Shown piece after piece: positions 1 to 7,480 of a DNA stretch of 7,480 nucleotides; the stretch's first letter is position 1, and each line of letters opens with the position of its first letter. The position numbers and the translations under genes were made by a program. The notes under the pieces are model-generated. The model was not told the origin of the DNA. It was given only the letters and a program-made list of their open reading frames with translations, and did no database searches. The stretch lies in the IMG/VR virus record IMGVR_UViG_2690316225_000012. One strand, 5' to 3'. This DNA is from a virus. Lineage: Duplodnaviria; Heunggongvirae; Uroviricota; Caudoviricetes.

Positions 1-1
1 G

Positions 2-109
2 AATTACGAGAAGCGCCATACCAAACAGGGGATACAGACCAACCTGACGCTGAAAGAGGAAAGCTACGGCGACTGGCTGCCAAAATGTGACGACCCTGCG
101 ACAGCCTGA
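2..109 (+). CDS. 3' end of an unidentified gene (last 35 codons; start lies outside the window)
   Basis: Frame 2 is open from the window edge to TGA at 107-109 (...NYEKRHTKQGIQTNLTLKEESYGDWLPKCDDPATA*); the other two + frames contain stops. A terminator hairpin follows immediately. Product not recognised. Confidence 0.4.
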   Translation, partial: NYEKRHTKQGIQTNLTLKEESYGDWLPKCDDPATA

Positions 110-115
110 CCCACC

Positions 116-140
116 TGACCGGCATCTGCCGGTCTTTTTT
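116..140 (+). terminator. Rho-independent terminator
   Basis: Stem GACCGGC (116-122), loop ATCT, stem GCCGGTC (127-133), then T7 (134-140), 7 nt after the stop codon of the upstream partial ORF. Confidence 0.7.
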
Positions 141-470
141 TATCCCTGAATTCCCCGAAGGTGAACAATCCACTGTTCACCCTTCACCGTACATTCACCC
201 GTTATCACACTGAAATTTAAAGAGAAAAATGAAAGGTGAACAGTGTGAACAATCAAATCAAAAAAAAACTTTTTTCTCCCTGTGTGATTTCAGTTCGGGG
301 GATTAATCACCGGTATGAGTCACACCGGCAGAATGCCGGAGGTGAAGAATCGAATGTTCACCCTTCACCCATTATTCACCACCTATCACTCTGAAATAAA
401 AGGAGAAAATCAAAGGGTGAACAGTGTGAACAGTTCTTTCGAAAAAAAATTTTTTTCCTGTACGATATAG
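116..470. repeat. Two direct repeat units, about 180-bp period, roughly 80% identical by eye (approx. 116-288 and 325-468), each with internal palindromes and A/T tracts
   Basis: Unit A: GTGAACA(161-167)...TGTTCAC(174-180), TTCACC at 183-188 and 195-200, GGTGAACAGTGTGAACA (235-251), A-tract then T-tract (260-275). Unit B has the same order at +181: CCCTTCACCC (361-370), GGTGAACAGTGTGAACA (416-432), A8T7 (442-456). Each unit is preceded by a CCGGCA-N-TGCCGG hairpin (118-131; 325-339). No ORF in the track covers this region. Confidence 0.7.
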
Positions 471-743
471 CATCAATCCAAGTAAAAATGCGCTTTCATT
501 TCACATTAACTTACAGCCATTGGTATACGATTAGGTATACGCACAAAAACTGAATTAAACAAAATCGTTAAAAATCAAAGCAATATAATATTTATTCAAA
601 CTCCGCCAGCCCCCAATCATGATTGGACGGTGTAAGGACAACACCAACAAAAACAGGAAGTTAGCAGTCTCAGCAGGACACCGACCAGACGGTGAGGAGA
701 CAAAAAAGGATACGCAAAGGAGCCGCGGCTCTCAAGTGTGAAA

Positions 744-769
744 GAAGCCCGCAAATTGCGGGCTTTTTT
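744..769 (+). terminator. Rho-independent terminator
   Basis: GC-rich stem GCCCGC (747-752) / GCGGGC (758-763), extendable by A-T pairs, loop AAATT, followed by T6 (764-769). No ORF upstream, so it may end a non-coding transcript or insulate orf343. Confidence 0.8.
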
Positions 770-824
770 ATTGATCAGTCAACAATAAACAGTAACCGAA
801 TGAGAATTTAATAAGGATATTCAT

Positions 825-1856
825 ATGGAAGCTACTGTGGATTCGATTGATTTTCTGATCCGTAGTGAAGATGATTTTCTAAACTTTCTGGAAGAAATGA
901 AAGCCCGAGAGGGGCTTGATTCTAAAGAGTTTATTTTCCCTAACGTAAAGTTTGCAGGCTGGCCATCCTTAGACATAAATGTAAAAGGAGAGCGGTATCA
1001 TTCATCAATTACATCAGCAATGTTGTTTGGTATGTCAATGCTCAACGAGGAGATACAGCGGGCGTTTGCAACCATACGATACGGATCGCAGAATCTTCAA
1101 CGCTTGACTAATGAAGACAAGCAACGACTTGATATAAATTTTAAAATTAGCGAAGGTTCTAGTGATGCGGAAGGCACCACTGACAAGATCATCAACGCAG
1201 TAACTGATTTTTTGCGAGATACTATGTCTGGACTGAACGGCTGGCAGAAAATGCTTGTTATAATCACAATGGTTGGCGCGGCCAGCACATGTGGTTATCA
1301 CTACATTTCAGAAAATGCCGTAACAGAAAGACATGCAACTGATCGGCAGGTTGAAATTGCAAAAACCACATCCGATGGCATAAACAAAGCCATAGAAGCA
1401 ACATTAGATTATAAAATCTATGGGAAATCAGCGATTAGCGATAAAGTTACTAGTCACGGACAAGCAGGTAAAAGTGCTTTAGTGAAGCAATTAGCTGCTG
1501 ATCCTACTGTCGAAACCGTGACTTTAGGAAATGAGAAACTAACACGACAAGACCTAAATACCTACAACAGCCGACAATCTGTAGATAGAGAACGTAAAGA
1601 ACGAACTGATATATTTTCCATCAAAGGTGTAACCAGAACAGGGCCAACAAATCAGGATATTAATATTAACGTTGTTAGGGTCTCTAATGACGAATGCTTC
1701 ACAATCAAAGCTTCAGCTGATGTTATCACCCAAGATGAGTTGACAGCTATTGTTGACGCTTTGTCAAACAACTCTCATATTAAAATCAGTTACTTAGAGG
1801 TAATTGAAAAGGGTGCTGTTTCTATAGGTCAGTTCAACACTATTGTTTCAGAATAA
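825..1856 (+). CDS. Hypothetical protein, 343 aa, with one central hydrophobic (likely transmembrane) segment; AT-rich cargo gene of unknown function
   Basis: Long ORF with ATG at 825 and an AAGGA ribosome-binding site at 813-817 (7-nt spacing). Hydrophobic stretch WQKMLVIITMVGAASTCGYHYI. Visibly more AT-rich than the tail genes. No motif I can assign to a known family. Confidence 0.8.
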   Translation: MEATVDSIDFLIRSEDDFLNFLEEMKAREGLDSKEFIFPNVKFAGWPSLDINVKGERYHSSITSAMLFGMSMLNEEIQRAFATIRYGSQNLQRLTNEDKQRLDINFKISEGSSDAEGTTDKIINAVTDFLRDTMSGLNGWQKMLVIITMVGAASTCGYHYISENAVTERHATDRQVEIAKTTSDGINKAIEATLDYKIYGKSAISDKVTSHGQAGKSALVKQLAADPTVETVTLGNEKLTRQDLNTYNSRQSVDRERKERTDIFSIKGVTRTGPTNQDININVVRVSNDECFTIKASADVITQDELTAIVDALSNNSHIKISYLEVIEKGAVSIGQFNTIVSE

Positions 1857-1907
1857 TCACTTAACCCCATTTATGTCGGTTGAGGTTATAAGTCACGGAG
1901 ACCAGAT

Positions 1908-2252
1908 ATGTCCTTAAAGTATGCACATGAAAAATTTCATACTGCAGTACTTACTCTTGCGGGCCATGGAAGTATTCAAGAACGCTTGATTAATTCGTAT
2001 GTTTTTAGCCTTGGGCATCTTAAAACAGCCGATGATATTCCAAATGCCTTACAAAGCAGGTTCGATGAATTATGTAAGGAACTGACTAAGTTTGATGCCA
2101 CTGGCGATGAGGGGCGAGTTCAAGCAACAGTATCAAAACTTAACGATTTCGAGATCAATAAACTGATCGAAGATATTGTCAGTCTTAACGATGATATTTG
2201 CATGAAATTGGCTCTGACGGATGAGACTTACCAAGACATACACCAAAGTTAA
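1908..2252 (+). CDS. Hypothetical acidic protein, 114 aa; its last 27 codons lie inside the left inverted repeat
   Basis: ATG at 1908 with GGAG at 1897-1900 (7-nt spacing), 51 bp after orf343, same strand and AT-rich composition. Stop at 2250-2252, followed by a hairpin at 2280-2302. Confidence 0.75.
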   Translation: MSLKYAHEKFHTAVLTLAGHGSIQERLINSYVFSLGHLKTADDIPNALQSRFDELCKELTKFDATGDEGRVQATVSKLNDFEINKLIEDIVSLNDDICMKLALTDETYQDIHQS

Positions 2253-2279
2253 TTGATTAAATTCAAAAAGTTAACGTTC

Positions 2280-2302
2280 AACCAGCCAGTTTTTGGCTGG
2301 TT
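2280..2302 (+). terminator. Hairpin terminator downstream of orf114 (convergent with orf70)
   Basis: AACCAGCC (2280-2287), loop AGTTTTT, GGCTGGTT (2295-2302), followed by TATTGTCTT. Sits between the convergent orf114 and orf70. Confidence 0.55.
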
Positions 2303-2336
2303 TATTGTCTTATAATATTCTTGCTCGAATGATGCA

Positions 2337-2549
2337 CTATTTATGATGTAATCCGGACATCAGTTCATGGACAAGATTATCTCTTTCATTGTGTTGCAAC
2401 CGTAAATGCATAGCAAAAAGGTGAGCACTATCCTCATTCCTCTTCAAGCCATGCTGTTCAAGATACCCGAAAAAACGGCTTCTCTTATCCGCTATTTCCT
2501 GAGTCTGACGTGCAACATTTACCAAATTTTCTAGCGTTTTTCTTGGCAT
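2337..2549 (-). CDS. Hypothetical small basic protein, 70 aa, immediately downstream of pin (copy 1)
   Basis: Identical to ORF 6135-6347; the strong AGGAGG ribosome-binding site read from the right copy (6122-6127, 7 nt before the ATG) is present here by symmetry. Product not recognised. Confidence 0.6.
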   Translation of the reverse strand: MPRKTLENLVNVARQTQEIADKRSRFFGYLEQHGLKRNEDSAHLFAMHLRLQHNERDNLVHELMSGLHHK

Positions 2550-2747
2550 ACTATTTCCTCCTGAAATTGTTGTAATTCACTAGGATATTCATTTTAATTT
2601 GTATCATTTAGTACCAAAACCGCTATCAATTAACAAAGCCATCGTTGTGGTTTACCTTGCAGCCGTTTTTTGTCATTGACTCTATGTGAAAATAATGAAT
2701 CATCATGAGATTGGCTCACACGTTCTTGAATTCGACGAGCTGTGTCT

Positions 2748-3302
2748 TTATTTATCTCCTGCCGGAAACCTCTGATACAAAGTCGATACGCCAACATCAT
2801 AGATAATCGCAACTTTCTGGCGCGGAACTCCTGATGCAATTAATCGTCCGGCTTGTGCCCATTGTTCTGGTGTAAGTTTGGGACGACGTCCACCAATTCG
2901 TCCCTGTGCGCGAGCAGCTTCCAGTCCAGCTTTTGTTCGTTCAACAATCAGTTCTCGTTCCATTTCAGCCAGGGCCCCCATCACATGAAAGAAAAAGCGC
3001 CCCATTGGGGTACTGGTATCAATTGAATCCGTCAGACTACGAAAGTTGATGCCTCGTTCGCGCAACTCCTCCACCAGCACGACAAGATGCCGCATACTGC
3101 GCCCCAGTCGGTCCAGTTTCCAGACCACCAGCGTATCGCCTGCCGATAATGTCCTGAGCAGTTTTTTCAGTCCCGGCCTTTCGGACTTTGTACCGCTTAT
3201 CTTGTCTTCAAAAATCAGCTCGCATCCTGCACAGTTCAGCGCATTACGTTGTAGATCTGTGTTCTGGTCATTTGTTGACACACGTACATAGCCAATAAGC
3301 AT
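2748..3302 (-). CDS. pin: Serine DNA invertase, Hin/Gin/Cin/Pin family (copy 1), 184 aa
   Basis: Translation MLIGYVRVSTNDQ... has the N-terminal catalytic Ser10 motif of small serine recombinases and a C-terminal helix-turn-helix region (GVPRQKVAIIYDVGVSTLYQRF). Preferred start is the internal ATG at 3300-3302, which has a GGAG site 7 nt upstream, not the ORF-track start at 3338. I recognise it as e14 Pin-like. Confidence 0.9.
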   Translation of the reverse strand: MLIGYVRVSTNDQNTDLQRNALNCAGCELIFEDKISGTKSERPGLKKLLRTLSAGDTLVVWKLDRLGRSMRHLVVLVEELRERGINFRSLTDSIDTSTPMGRFFFHVMGALAEMERELIVERTKAGLEAARAQGRIGGRRPKLTPEQWAQAGRLIASGVPRQKVAIIYDVGVSTLYQRFPAGDK

Positions 3303-3356
3303 GGTAGATCTCCCTGACAAAAGCAGGAATGATGCCATTTGCTCGTTATTTCTGCA

Positions 3357-3382
3357 TTTTCATAAACGTTGGTTTGGGAGAA
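3357..3382. other. 26-bp invertase crossover site 1 (pix/gix/hix-like)
   Basis: TTTTCATAAACG-TT-GGTTTGGGAGAA: two imperfectly palindromic 12-bp half-sites around a 2-bp AA/TT core, matching the architecture of hixL/gixL/cix sites. Located between pin and variable cassette A, in frame for GLGE. Confidence 0.75.
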
Positions 3383-3383
3383 G

Positions 3384-3823
3384 CGGCAAAACGAAATGTG
3401 GGCAACGGGGAAAACCAAATCCCTGATATGTCTTTCTGGACGGTTACTGGTGGCAATGGAAATTTTGTGATTCGTCAACCTGACGGGCTAATCATTCAGA
3501 TGGTTACTGTAAGTATAAGCGGTCCAGTGGCGATGAATGGAATGACTGATAATGCTTATGCCATTACAGGTTCTAATAAGTCTTATATTGCCACAGCCAC
3601 ATTGCCCTTTGTATTTCCTAATAAGGTGCTGGGCGTTATCCCTCTGGTATCAACAACAGCTTATGGTGGTGTATCCAGTAATATTACAGGTTCATACGCG
3701 ACGGCGGTTTGTTCTTTTGCCGCTGTCAGGGGGAATAATACGATTGTGTTCAAAGTCGACAAACCACTGAATGCAGCCTTTCCTTCAGATACCAGCGTCT
3801 CAGCGTTAATCATTGGACGGTAA
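3384..3823 (+). CDS. Side tail-fibre C-terminal variable cassette A (no start codon of its own; in frame with the GLGE codons of site 1)
   Basis: ORF track 3329-3823; the first 18 residues (MMPFARYFCIFINVGLGE) are read from pin-upstream and crossover-site sequence shared with cassette B, so the listed start is not real. Sequence diverges from cassette B exactly after GLGE. Confidence 0.75.
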
Positions 3824-3825
3824 GA

Positions 3826-4269
3826 ATGAACTCAGTATTCTTTTCACCCGCAAGTAAAAGTTTTTATCTGCAAGAATTGTTTCCAGAATATGAGGATGCG
3901 GGAACGCTTCCTGATGATGTTATTGAAATTACCAGAGAAACATATGAGCAATTTCTTGGGCTGCATCCAGAAGGGAAAGAAATTGGCGCTGACAGTTCAG
4001 GACGGCCAATATGGATTAATTCCCCGCCGCCTTCAAAAGAGGATGAGATGCTGGCGGCTGAAATGAAAAAGATATCTTTGGTTTCAGAAGTCAATACCTA
4101 CATCAATACCCATCAGTGGCCTGGCAAAGCTGCTATTGGTCGTCTGAAAGGTTACGAGCTGGAACAATATAATTTATGGCTGGATTATCTGGACGCACTG
4201 GAACTGGTTGATACCTCCAGTGCTCCAGATATTGAATGGCCTACGCCTCCGGTAGTTCAGGCCAGATGA
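3826..4269 (+). CDS. Tail fibre assembly protein (Tfa), paired with cassette A
   Basis: 147 aa ending ...YLDALELVDTSSAPDIEWPTPP, the conserved Tfa C-terminal motif. ATG lies 2 nt after the cassette A stop. Confidence 0.85.
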   Translation: MNSVFFSPASKSFYLQELFPEYEDAGTLPDDVIEITRETYEQFLGLHPEGKEIGADSSGRPIWINSPPPSKEDEMLAAEMKKISLVSEVNTYINTHQWPGKAAIGRLKGYELEQYNLWLDYLDALELVDTSSAPDIEWPTPPVVQAR

Positions 4270-4846
4270 CATCCGGCGCGGTGCTGGTATCTGTTGCAGT
4301 CACCGCGTCAATGTAATCCAGCACAGCGTTAAGCCGGGTTGTTTCTGCCTGCGTCAGCTTCCGCCCGGCCTGCAATTTCAGCTGAATCAGACTAATGGAA
4401 GCCATAGCAGCATCAATCAGTGACTGGCGCCGTACTTCTGCCGCGTCTACTGCGGCGTTATGCTGTGCCTCAGTATCGGTCACCCATTTCTCACCATCCC
4501 ATTTATCGTATGACGTTAACGGGGCGATAGTGGTTGTATTTTCAGGGTAATCACCCGGAACTGTGATTTCTTTTGATTCTCCTGTTTCGGTGCTATAGAC
4601 GATTTCACCGCGATGGTCTGGCACATATTCCCATGAGTTAAAATCTGCAGAACGGCAAATTGCATAACCAGCTTTATATGAGCCAGGAGCATCTAAACAG
4701 GAACATGCCGGGATACCAACACCCACAGCAAGATATTCAGTTGATGTGGAAATATATTCCCGTGTTTCACCATCATAATTATAAACGGTAATGTCTCCGG
4801 CCTTTGTGGCGATGAGTTCATTATTTAATACAGCTTTACTTATCAT
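4241..4846 (-). CDS. Tail fibre assembly protein (Tfa), paired with cassette B
   Basis: 201 aa ending ...LDYIDAVTATDTSTAPDVIWPELPEA (Tfa C-terminal motif). Start overlaps the cassette B stop as ATGA (4843-4846); its 3' end overlaps the other tfa by 29 bp. Confidence 0.85.
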   Translation of the reverse strand: MISKAVLNNELIATKAGDITVYNYDGETREYISTSTEYLAVGVGIPACSCLDAPGSYKAGYAICRSADFNSWEYVPDHRGEIVYSTETGESKEITVPGDYPENTTTIAPLTSYDKWDGEKWVTDTEAQHNAAVDAAEVRRQSLIDAAMASISLIQLKLQAGRKLTQAETTRLNAVLDYIDAVTATDTSTAPDVIWPELPEA

Positions 4847-5300
4847 GCAGCCCTCACAATATAATTAAAGGCGATGTTACGGGAGCGGGTTTCAGATGCT
4901 GTGCGAACTGAGCGAGATGCGTCGAATGTCCAGTTATAAGCGCCATAACCCTCAATAATTTCGGCTTCCTTTAGACCTGTAGATAATACTTGCCCATGTT
5001 GACTAAATGGCCCTGAACTAAGTACGTCTCTAAAAAGCTGGGTACGCCCAAAAGAACCAACAATATTCTGAATTGCATCATTCTGTGCAGATAATAAGTT
5101 ACGACCAGAGTCAATCCCGCGCCCATCATCCCAGCCACGAATAAATTCACCGCGTAAATCTGGTAATTTTAATGTTGGGTAAGCCTTTGCCAGATTTGGG
5201 TACTTTTCAGAAGAAAATACTGCTCCGTTACATTTTAGCCACCCCGTTGGCGGAGTGGCGGAAGGCCACGGAACAGGCACACCAACGGGTAATGCCGAAC
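4843..5300 (-). CDS. Side tail-fibre C-terminal variable cassette B (no start codon of its own; in frame with the GLGE codons of site 2)
   Basis: ORF track 4843-5355. After GLGE: GSALPVGVPVPWPSATPPTGWLKCNGAVFSSEKYPNLAKAYPTLKLPDLRGEFIRGWDDGRG...RNIAFNYIVRAA, which I recognise as a Mu S / e14 StfE-type fibre C-terminus. Confidence 0.8.
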
Positions 5301-5301
5301 C

Positions 5302-5327
5302 TTCTCCCAAACCAACGTTTATGAAAA
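5302..5327. other. 26-bp invertase crossover site 2 (inverted copy of site 1)
   Basis: TTCTCCCAAACC-AA-CGTTTATGAAAA; exact reverse complement of site 1; encodes FINVGLGE on the minus strand at the start of cassette B. Confidence 0.75.
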
Positions 5328-5381
5328 TGCAGAAATAACGAGCAAATGGCATCATTCCTGCTTTTGTCAGGGAGATCTACC

Positions 5382-5936
5382 ATGCTTATTGGCTATGTAC
5401 GTGTGTCAACAAATGACCAGAACACAGATCTACAACGTAATGCGCTGAACTGTGCAGGATGCGAGCTGATTTTTGAAGACAAGATAAGCGGTACAAAGTC
5501 CGAAAGGCCGGGACTGAAAAAACTGCTCAGGACATTATCGGCAGGCGATACGCTGGTGGTCTGGAAACTGGACCGACTGGGGCGCAGTATGCGGCATCTT
5601 GTCGTGCTGGTGGAGGAGTTGCGCGAACGAGGCATCAACTTTCGTAGTCTGACGGATTCAATTGATACCAGTACCCCAATGGGGCGCTTTTTCTTTCATG
5701 TGATGGGGGCCCTGGCTGAAATGGAACGAGAACTGATTGTTGAACGAACAAAAGCTGGACTGGAAGCTGCTCGCGCACAGGGACGAATTGGTGGACGTCG
5801 TCCCAAACTTACACCAGAACAATGGGCACAAGCCGGACGATTAATTGCATCAGGAGTTCCGCGCCAGAAAGTTGCGATTATCTATGATGTTGGCGTATCG
5901 ACTTTGTATCAGAGGTTTCCGGCAGGAGATAAATAA
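5382..5936 (+). CDS. pin: Serine DNA invertase, Hin/Gin/Cin/Pin family (copy 2), 184 aa
   Basis: Identical translation to copy 1; GGAG at 5371-5374, ATG at 5382. The ORF-track start at 5346 adds 12 codons with no ribosome-binding site and is not preferred. Confidence 0.9.
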   Translation: MLIGYVRVSTNDQNTDLQRNALNCAGCELIFEDKISGTKSERPGLKKLLRTLSAGDTLVVWKLDRLGRSMRHLVVLVEELRERGINFRSLTDSIDTSTPMGRFFFHVMGALAEMERELIVERTKAGLEAARAQGRIGGRRPKLTPEQWAQAGRLIASGVPRQKVAIIYDVGVSTLYQRFPAGDK

Positions 5937-6134
5937 AGACACAGCTCGTCGAATTCAAGAACGTGTGAGCCAATCTCATGATGATTCATTATTTTCACAT
6001 AGAGTCAATGACAAAAAACGGCTGCAAGGTAAACCACAACGATGGCTTTGTTAATTGATAGCGGTTTTGGTACTAAATGATACAAATTAAAATGAATATC
6101 CTAGTGAATTACAACAATTTCAGGAGGAAATAGT

Positions 6135-6347
6135 ATGCCAAGAAAAACGCTAGAAAATTTGGTAAATGTTGCACGTCAGACTCAGGAAATAGCGGATAAG
6201 AGAAGCCGTTTTTTCGGGTATCTTGAACAGCATGGCTTGAAGAGGAATGAGGATAGTGCTCACCTTTTTGCTATGCATTTACGGTTGCAACACAATGAAA
6301 GAGATAATCTTGTCCATGAACTGATGTCCGGATTACATCATAAATAG
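6135..6347 (+). CDS. Hypothetical small basic protein, 70 aa, downstream of pin (copy 2)
   Basis: AGGAGG at 6122-6127, ATG at 6135; identical to 2337-2549 (-). Confidence 0.6.
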   Translation: MPRKTLENLVNVARQTQEIADKRSRFFGYLEQHGLKRNEDSAHLFAMHLRLQHNERDNLVHELMSGLHHK

Positions 6348-6381
6348 TGCATCATTCGAGCAAGAATATTATAAGACAATA

Positions 6382-6404
6382 AACCAGCCAAAAACTGGCT
6401 GGTT
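6382..6404 (-). terminator. Hairpin terminator (inverted-repeat copy of 2280-2302), here oriented to end the truncated fibre transcript
   Basis: Reverse complement of the 2280-2302 hairpin; on the minus strand the stem is followed by TATTGTCTT. Confidence 0.5.
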
Positions 6405-6431
6405 GAACGTTAACTTTTTGAATTTAATCAA

Positions 6432-6818
6432 TTAACTTTGGTGTATGTCTTGGTAAGTCTCATCCGTCAGAGCCAATTTCATGCAAATATCATCGTTAAG
6501 ACTGACAATATCTACTTCTCCCAAACCAAGGTTTTCGAGAGCCGTTTTCACCGTGCCATCAGATTTGATATCGCCAAACGGATTCTTGCGGCTTAACAGC
6601 AGCGCACGAAGCGCGGTAAGCAGCTGGTCATGCCGCCCCTTCTCCAGGCTGGCACCGGATGCCTCCACCACGCTGCAGAGTTCTTCCTGCAACATGTCAA
6701 AGTAGTCATCATCCAGATCGGTGGCAGGTGTGCCGGTCTGGGGGTTACCACGGGTAAAACCGTTCTTACCCGCGCCGAACTTATCCTTCTGCGCGGTTTT
6801 CGTGTCTATACGATGCAT
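6432..6818 (-). CDS. Side tail-fibre N-terminal constant domain, fused in this arrangement to a 27-aa tail copied from orf114 (truncated fibre)
   Basis: ATG at 6816-6818 with GGAG 7 nt upstream, 3 nt after the YmfQ-like stop. [21 protein letters not shown]...[10 protein letters not shown] looks like a fibre N-terminal domain and ends in the GLGE crossover-site codons. The ORF then runs into the inverted repeat and ends [27 protein letters not shown], identical to the orf114 C-terminus. Confidence 0.7.
6516..6541. other. 26-bp invertase crossover site 3, inside the fibre constant-domain gene
   Basis: TTCTCCCAAACC-AA-GGTTTTCGAGAG: the left half-site is identical to that of site 2, the right half-site is fibre-specific; encodes LENLGLGE in the fibre frame; 2 nt from the inverted-repeat boundary. 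Confidence 0.7.
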
Positions 6819-6821
6819 GGA

Positions 6822-7479
<658 letters not shown>

Positions 7480-7480
7480 C

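Follow-up and report, generated by a model that had tools for sequence, protein, structure and literature searches.

Has the prophage tail-fibre locus described here acquired a third alternative fibre C-terminus and a second invertase of its own, or is it a familiar two-site switch to which something has been added by chance? The window (the whole 7,480-nucleotide stretch that was analysed) carries a cryptic prophage remnant adjoining ssrA in E. coli. Three pix crossover sites and two pinE invertase genes are found in it (Table 1). The locus is probably an ordinary e14-type Pin/pix switch bearing an inverted copy of its pin arm, and this copy would be a recent one-off accident instead of an evolved third cassette.

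Table 1. Sites, genes and repeat structures in the window
Feature	Position	Strand	Remarks
orf114, intact native copy	1908..2252	+	WP_000054185.1 in normal loci; its last 82 nt (2171-2252) lie outermost in the left arm
Left arm of perfect inverted repeat, original position	2171..3383		Holds orf114 tail, orf70, pinE and pin-proximal pix site
orf70, copy 1	2337..2549	-	No family match
pinE, copy 1	2748..3302	-	184-aa serine invertase; Resolvase and HTH_7 domains
Site 1, canonical pin-proximal pix site	3357..3382	+	TTTTCATAAACG-TT-GGTTTGGGAGAA; core 3369-3370
Fibre variable cassette A (GLGE-AAKRNV...)	3371..3823	+	Weak Gp53-like_C match
Tail-fibre assembly protein, cassette A	3826..4269	+	Caudo_TAP
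Tail-fibre assembly protein TfaE, cassette B	4241..4846	-	Caudo_TAP
Fibre variable cassette B (GLGE-GSALPVG...)	4843..5313	-	Phage tail collar domain
Site 2, supernumerary	5302..5327	-	Exact inverted copy of site 1; core 5314-5315
Insertion relative to strain 602687, core to core	5316..6529		1,214 bp; 15-nt direct repeat CTTCTCCCAAACCAA at its flanks
pinE, copy 2	5382..5936	+	Identical to copy 1
orf70, copy 2	6135..6347	+	Within duplicated arm
Duplicated orf114 tail	6432..6513	-	82 nt; gives the fibre ORF its final residues and stop codon
Fibre ORF, present state	6432..6818	-	128 aa: 101-aa constant N-terminus ending GLGE plus 27-aa orf114 tail
Junction J, illegitimate end of duplication	6514..6515		- strand GGTTTGGGAGAAG-T-AGATATTGTC; one untemplated nucleotide
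Site 3, canonical fibre-side pix	6516..6541	-	- strand CTCTCGAAAACC-TT-GGTTTGGGAGAA; core 6528-6529
YmfQ / Mu gp48-like baseplate gene	6822..7433	-	IS3-family element cuts the prophage just upstream

In each crossover site a 2-bp core separates two half-sites of 12 bp, which are imperfect inverted repeats of each other. The initial annotation had described three 26-mers with an AA/TT core and a common half-site, the second being the reverse complement of the first, and the sequence reads exactly so. The half-site GGTTTGGGAGAA occurs exactly three times in the window and encodes GLGE in the fibre frame (GGT TTG GGA GAA). Written on the + strand, site 3 is TTCTCCCAAACC-AA-GGTTTTCGAGAG, and it starts 2 nt past the right repeat arm, as had been noted. 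A scan of the window for degenerate hix/gix/pix-type 26-mers, tolerating at most three mismatches, returned three sites where 0.01 are expected; the three 26-bp sites are not chance matches. Their computed orientations, in the order 1, 2 and 3, are +, - and -, which bears out the description of sites 2 and 3 as direct repeats, with site 1 inverted relative to both. Assignment to the hix/gix/cix family is likewise sound. The sites are of the Hin/Gin/Cin/Pin type, align with Mu gix and, when compared directly against the K-12 e14 sequence, are base-identical to the two pix sites found there. The e14 inversion repeats have been published as TTGGTTTGGGAGAAGG (PMC12529663).

Which of the three is the extra site? 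The annotation had singled out the one inside the fibre gene. That site exists, but it is canonical in every e14-type locus: it is identical to the pix site inside stfP of K-12 e14 and to the fibre-side site of E. coli strain 602687. The normal order of the locus is orf343, orf114, orf70, pinE, pin-side pix, cassette A, tfa, tfaE, cassette B, fibre-side pix, fibre constant region and ymfQ. Site 3 lies at the constant/variable junction of the fibre gene and site 1 beside pin, with the two cassettes and the Caudo_TAP genes between them. The supernumerary site is site 2, which exists because of a 1,214-bp duplication.

This duplication becomes evident when the window is compared with strain 602687. 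Once the 1,214 bp are removed, there are zero differences between the two sequences across positions 613-7480 (6.8 kb). The block lies inverted, with cassette B on one side and the fibre constant region on the other, and comprises the terminal 82 nt of orf114 together with orf70, pinE and the pin-proximal site. The resulting repeat arms (2171-3383 and 5301-6513) are 1,213 nt each and 100% identical. Judged by sequence, the duplication looks recent. Addition of the inverted pin-arm copy exactly at the fibre-side site would yield the three pix sites and the two copies of pin. The invertase gene is indeed present twice, as had been claimed.

The pinE product shares 180 of 184 residues (98%) with K-12 PinE and matches PF00239 at 1.5e-51 and PF02796 at 3.6e-13. 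The pin 5' region aligns at 82% with the Mu gin 5' region, and the recombinational enhancer of gin, which is bound by Fis, is situated in the gin 5' region. Cassette A scores 24.2 bits against Gp53-like_C, slightly below the Pfam cut-off of 24.9. Searches of Pfam and PADLOC returned nothing for orf70, orf114 or orf343, and an Rfam scan of the window gave no match.

The inner flanks of the three sites are cassette A, cassette B and the orf114 tail, just as annotated. However, the orf114-tail flank is a piece of an unrelated neighbouring gene and no genuine fibre cassette; no Pfam domain is found in its 27 residues. Because this piece serves as the third flank, the fibre gene would here be in a truncated null state, with its frame passing from the constant region into a 27-codon orf114 tail. 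The 128-aa ORF is without a receptor-binding domain. A natural third cassette starting GLGE-VD was also considered and rejected. The megablast extension into the cassettes of FDN-9 and Res13 reflects a chance AGATAT-GTCA similarity, and those cassettes read GLGE-PDMSF.

The two ends of the insert differ in character. One falls within the 15-nt stretch that is common to all pix sites. The other, junction J, lies 14 nt from the site-3 core and 1 nt past the sequence shared by all pix flanks. A simple duplication through GAAG/GAAG microhomology can be dismissed for junction J, since it predicts GAAGATATT, and the actual sequence, GAAGTAGATATT, has three bases too many. Two routes might have produced the present arrangement. 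Replication may have switched templates between the short inverted pix repeats and then returned to its departure point, or a tandem duplication may have been followed by one Pin inversion. One report describes template switching at short inverted repeats as a model for inverted amplifications that was both proposed and tested (PMC4689423). Neither route fully accounts for the filler base or for the position of the junction.

Simulated Pin recombination generates four isomers and two deletion products, with fibre products of 128, 247 or 253 aa. Inversion between sites 1 and 2 would silently flip the A/B segment. Inversion between sites 1 and 3 would turn the duplication into a direct tandem one, with the A/B switch working as normal. 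Deletion between sites 2 and 3 would bring back the wild-type locus, and one of the simulated deletion products does have the layout of strain 602687. Deletion between direct repeats is disfavoured by the enzyme family to which Pin belongs.

In natural populations the invertible segment occurs both ways round. Cassette B is joined to the constant region in one genome (H1) and cassette A in another (H14), with identical proteins, and metagenome contigs show junctions of pin with either cassette. The junction of the orf114 tail with site 3 did not turn up in any of the 5,426 complete E. coli genomes searched. The contig collections searched (genome, viral and metagenome) lack it too, and the phage and plasmid collections contain no second instance. 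An exact-protein look-up of the 128-aa fibre protein was without match, and none of 2,748 fibre homologues carries the orf114 tail. On these searches, the three-site layout is private to one sequence. The topology formally allows multi-site rearrangement, but the layout is no conserved multi-site system of the kind of Min of p15B: it is absent from these genomes and homologues, and a single perfect insertion of 1,214 bp is all that sets it apart from a normal two-site locus.

Such singularity is also what an assembly or library chimera would produce, and this is the alternative that survives best, although we consider it rather unlikely. The genome would then have the normal two-site locus, with the second pin arm and junction J created during assembly or scaffolding of a population with mixed segment orientations. 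This locus demonstrably misleads assemblers. Three deposited records present the invertible segment alone as a circular 'plasmid' of 1.92 kb, and one SPAdes metagenome contig (L009) bears the pin-side flank at both ends of the segment. The window itself terminates about 95 nt inside the IS3 element, which resembles a contig end. Past one odd base, moreover, the fibre-side part begins at the first base of the shared 15-nt stretch, and an edge in an assembly graph would start at this stretch, which is common to all four junction types. On the other hand, a mis-walk through the graph should run on through orf114 and orf343 and not halt at 2171 to jump to the fibre side. The sequence GAAG-T-AGATATT must either occur in reads or arise by an unusual joining step. 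The exact form of the site-flanked duplication, with its 15-nt direct repeats and perfect arms, is also unlike a random chimera.

Two observations on junction J weigh against an accidental duplication in the genome. The position 1 nt beyond the shared sequence is where an assembler consensus would break in a mixed-orientation population, and the junction is known here from one sequence alone.

It is improbable, but worth stating, that the window represents a real natural switch with three sites and two invertases. Pin would then switch the fibre back and forth from a truncated OFF form to either of two ON forms, A or B, and the inverted isomer would shield the pin duplication from RecA-mediated collapse. 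If this were true, a pin gene together with its own pix site would constitute a module that can be copied into the partner site. Such copying would offer a route for the spread of invertase modules or a start for multi-site switches.

Very unlikely, and for the most part refuted, is an evolved multi-inversion system with three alternative fibre C-termini and a duplicated recombinase. All three sites and both pin genes are intact, the fusion of the fibre to the orf114 tail is in frame, and E. coli prophage switches with three inverted repeats and three C-termini do exist (PMC4272514). However, the third flank is taken from a neighbouring gene and has no fibre domain, the join lies off the core and includes a filler base, and there is zero divergence between the arms and from the two-site relative. 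No other genome or homologue searched has the arrangement. In addition, the prophage is a remnant that is cut by IS3 just upstream of ymfQ; since the rest of the tail genes are missing, it presumably assembles no tails.

Least credible of all is that Pin made both ends of the duplication by crossing over at a quasi-pix site in orf114. Cin and Gin are known to cross over at secondary sites, and by inspection a weak motif resembling an outer half-site (GATCAATAAACT, 2153-2164) matches TTTTCATAAACG at 7 of 12 positions, but the 2170/2171 breakpoint sits 5 nt from the motif's would-be core, the degenerate scan shows no fourth site, the distance of the join from the site-3 core and the junction sequence itself contradict such an origin (no way of placing a 2-nt core between two flanks gives both parental sequences), and site 3 is fully intact with both half-sites, so its core has undergone no exchange.

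On any of these readings, the basic system is the e14 Pin switch, which has long been known. If the accidental duplication is real, the window is a natural snapshot of a single accident of replication or recombination that gave a two-site switch one more site and another copy of its recombinase. Multi-site systems such as Min could begin in this way. The locus, with its direct and inverted site pairs and two putative enhancers, is also a ready substrate for studying how strictly Pin avoids deletion in vivo. Should the structure prove an artefact, it serves as a warning that invertible segments create false structures in assemblies, as do the 1.9-kb 'plasmids'.

Among known systems, the shufflon, to which the locus had been likened, fails as an analogy because Rci of the R64 type is a tyrosine recombinase acting on sfx repeats and the enzyme here is a serine resolvase/invertase. 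The Gin/gix system of Mu, Cin/cix of P1 and Hin/hix of Salmonella likewise employ a serine invertase. Mu gix has the same 12-2-12 layout in alignment, with one site at the fibre constant/variable junction, although its core reads TC there and the cores here are AA/TT. These three systems use two sites and one invertase, in contrast to the three sites and two invertase genes of the window.

More than two sites per fibre locus are found in Min of plasmid p15B, which has six, and in the P2-like prophage switch with three repeats (PMC4272514). In both, as here, nested inversions yield several isomers (four in the present case). However, each extra site in those systems fronts a genuine alternative fibre C-terminus and a single invertase serves all of them. 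In the window a duplication has produced the extra flank as a side effect, there are two copies of the invertase, and only one sequence shows the layout. In E. coli FDAARGOS_1287, too, a cassette-tfa-tfa-cassette segment has an invertase gene on either side, and each of these genes has a site of the pin-proximal type. There, however, the second gene is a distinct one (86% identical) from a P2-like prophage, which implies exchange between two prophages and not local duplication.

The closest relative is the e14 P-segment of K-12 (stfP-tfaP-tfaE-stfE-pinE), with which the window shares both 26-bp sites exactly and a 98% identical Pin. Gene order is the same, with ymfQ, a constant region ending in GLGE, two cassettes with two tfa genes, and pin pointing outward, and this segment too is found in nature in both orientations. 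The locus in the window differs in that it adjoins ssrA in a smaller remnant and carries orf70, orf114 and orf343 beyond pin, where e14 has mcrA. In the present sequence alone there is a second, inverted pin arm of 1,214 bp, and with it the third site, the second pin gene and the truncated fibre ORF.

Direct reading of the window agreed exactly with the positions and sequences of all three 26-mers proposed in the initial annotation. Exactly three copies of the half-site GGTTTGGGAGAA are present, and a degenerate invertase-site consensus, scanned with up to three mismatches, matches only these three places, against a chance expectation of 0.01. Orientation analysis bears out that sites 2 and 3 are direct repeats and that site 1 is inverted relative to both, and the arm coordinates place the start of site 3 at 2 nt outside the right repeat arm, as claimed. 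On alignment, both pix site types share the 12-2-12 layout of Mu gix, and the window sites are identical to the two sites of K-12 e14: sites 1 and 2 to the one adjoining pinE (TTTTCATAAACG-TT-GGTTTGGGAGAA), and site 3 to the fibre-side one inside stfP (CTCTCGAAAACC-TT-GGTTTGGGAGAA). The e14 inversion repeats have been published as TTGGTTTGGGAGAAGG (PMC12529663). Because of this identity, the third site, although present in the fibre gene, is not novel but the canonical fibre-side pix site of every such locus. Site 1 is the canonical pin-proximal site and site 2 the supernumerary one.

Positions of features in the window
Feature	Position	Strand	Remarks
End of P4-like satellite	1-594		primase-helicase gene
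122-nt direct repeat	155-276 and 336-457		79% identical copies
Duplicate of ssrA 3' end	595-617
orf343, orf114, orf70	825-2549		beyond pin
Perfect inverted repeat, 1,213 nt	2171-3383 and 5301-6513		sites 1 and 2 at inner ends
Site 1	3357-3382	+
Site 2	5302-5327	-
Site 3	6516-6541	-
15-nt direct repeats	5301 and 6515		CTTCTCCCAAACCAA
Junction J	6514-6515	-	GGTTTGGGAGAAG-T-AGATATTGTC
IS3-family element	~7385-7480		interrupts prophage

Recombinase, layout, natural inversion and the structure of the sites all place the locus in the Hin/Gin/Cin/Pin family, e14 type. Its invertase shares 98% identity with PinE of K-12 e14 and contains a Resolvase and an HTH_7 domain; by sequence comparison, the pin 5' region, the candidate place of a Fis enhancer, is homologous to that of gin. 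Between sites 1 and 2 lie two fibre C-terminal cassettes, A with a weak Gp53-like match slightly below the Pfam cut-off and B with a tail-collar domain (Pfam), separated by two convergent tail-fibre assembly genes. The fibre constant region, with its GLGE end, and a YmfQ/Mu gp48-like gene follow to the right of the segment. The suggested likeness to shufflons fails, since the recombinase is of the serine type.

Strain 602687 is the closest of 5,426 complete E. coli genomes and has the normal layout adjoining ssrA (from the ssrA side: orf343, orf114, orf70, pinE, cassette A, tfa, tfaE, fibre, ymfQ, IS3 element) and a 253-aa fibre composed of the constant region and cassette B. Removal of 1,214 bp, bounded by the 15-nt direct repeats, converts the window to the 602687 sequence with no differences across positions 613-7480. 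Apart from one extra base, the insertion repeats the left arm perfectly in inverted orientation; it comprises the final 82 nt of orf114 together with orf70, pinE and the pin-side site. Its inner end falls inside sequence common to all pix sites, and its outer end is junction J. As a consequence, the fibre ORF is truncated: it runs from GLGE through 27 orf114 codons to a stop, giving 128 aa without a receptor-binding domain.

Neither the duplicated arm nor J is found in any of the 5,426 genomes. A 32-mer spanning J was absent from genome, viral and metagenome contig collections, and protein look-up returned no record of the 128-aa product. The orf114 tail is likewise missing from all 2,748 homologues of the fibre constant region, among which many other cassettes and decayed forms are present. 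In many of the database homologues (P0030, P0005, P0107 and others), GLGE is joined to frameshifted, truncated or read-through sequence; in P0030, for instance, the reading frame crosses an inverted site and continues as the antisense of cassette B. In cryptic prophages the locus decays by many routes. Given that the two arms do not differ and that the rest of the window matches a two-site relative exactly, the duplication is either very recent or no biological event.

The initial observation holds and its interpretation holds in part: the locus is a known system with a recombinase-arm duplication private to this sequence, or it may be an assembly chimera. If the duplication is genuine, a nascent strand might have switched templates from site 3 to site 1 through the 15 identical bases of these short inverted pix repeats, copied 1.2 kb of the pin arm and returned to its departure point. 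Such a route would place J exactly where the shared 15 nt begin, and that is where it lies. For inverted amplifications, template switching at short inverted repeats is a model that has been tested (PMC4689423). Alternatively, tandem duplication of 2171-3383 could have been followed by one Pin inversion, which leaves the coincidence of the end-point with the site edge without explanation. Neither route accounts for the filler at J, which is one base, or three if GAAG/GAAG microhomology was used.

That assembly created the duplicated arm and J is unlikely, yet it is the most serious of the rival explanations. The fibre-side part, after one odd base, begins exactly at the graph-edge start expected for a mixed-orientation culture, and assemblers are visibly confused here. 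Three deposited 1.92-kb circular 'plasmids' of cat E. coli (PLSDB CP148528.1, NZ_CP148540.1 and NZ_CP148539.1; 1,920-1,923 bp) contain the invertible segment alone. These records correspond exactly to the segment between pix sites (window 3381-5303; 99.5% identity) and are almost certainly assembly artefacts of it, not plasmids. The SPAdes metagenome contig L009 (ENA ERZ15609710 NODE_24294, 2,027 bp) consists of the same segment with 42 nt of pin-side flank at each end, and fits a k=55 graph edge from a mixed-orientation population. It is direct evidence of inversion under way in a gut sample, and it shows how topologies with pin on both sides can form in assembly. However, an assembler that strayed into the reversed arm should have gone on past 2171, and an artefact still requires J to exist in the reads.

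Recombination simulated at the cores gives four isomers of 7,480 bp, the window among them. Exchange of site 1 with site 2 turns the A/B segment round and leaves the fibre truncated. Exchange of site 1 with site 3 leaves the 1,214-bp unit as a simple tandem duplication in direct orientation, with a normal A/B switch beyond it and fibres of 247 or 253 aa. Simulated deletion between direct sites yields 6,266-bp products, one with exactly the 602687 layout; Hin/Gin-type enzymes strongly disfavour direct-repeat deletion. RecA-dependent flipping through the 1.2-kb arms would also be possible. Homologous recombination would soon collapse the tandem duplication, and the inverted isomer in the window would be shielded from this collapse. 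Inversion is active in this lineage: strain PS1Thumoskin9 encodes the same proteins and has its segment in the opposite orientation, and metagenome contigs contain both pin-A and pin-B junctions.

A functioning three-state switch or self-copying pin-pix module is improbable. An evolved three-cassette system is very improbable, as neither a genuine cassette behind each site nor conservation across genomes was found. A junction made purely by Pin is hardly credible, since the site-3 core is 14 nt away from J, whose sequence rules out a core-crossover product.

The prophage remnant retains only ymfQ, the fibre switch and the cargo genes, and is presumably unable to build tails. The cargo genes stand where K-12 e14 has mcrA, have no Pfam or PADLOC match and may be an uncharacterised accessory or defence module; at this position other strains (for example, locus H24) carry a methyltransferase and a restriction endonuclease. 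Its match to the ssrA 3' end makes 595-617 an attachment site. The direct repeat in the adjoining P4-like satellite is rich in GTGAACA motifs, and no complete E. coli genome has this satellite joined directly to orf343. The IS3-family element lies immediately upstream of ymfQ, likewise in strain 602687, and the window ends ~95 nt inside it, as is typical of a short-read contig.

The proposed likeness to multi-site systems such as Min of p15B stands for the presence of more than two sites, the sole resemblance, and fails for a cassette per site and for conservation across genomes. A P2-like prophage fibre switch with three repeats (PMC4272514) is similar in this respect alone. E. coli FDAARGOS_1287 (NZ_CP070071.1, 8156-11337) has the same ssrA-orf343-orf114-orf70-pinE arm and, beyond it, a cassette-tfa-tfa-cassette segment, then a second invertase gene (86% identical) and P2-like sheath and tube genes. 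Here a segment naturally lies between two invertase genes, but the second is a different invertase, that of a P2-like prophage, with its own pin-proximal-type site, TTCTCCCAAACC-AA-CGTTTAAGAAAA. This layout implies that two prophages underwent exchange at their crossover sites, probably as a chromosomal inversion of large size.
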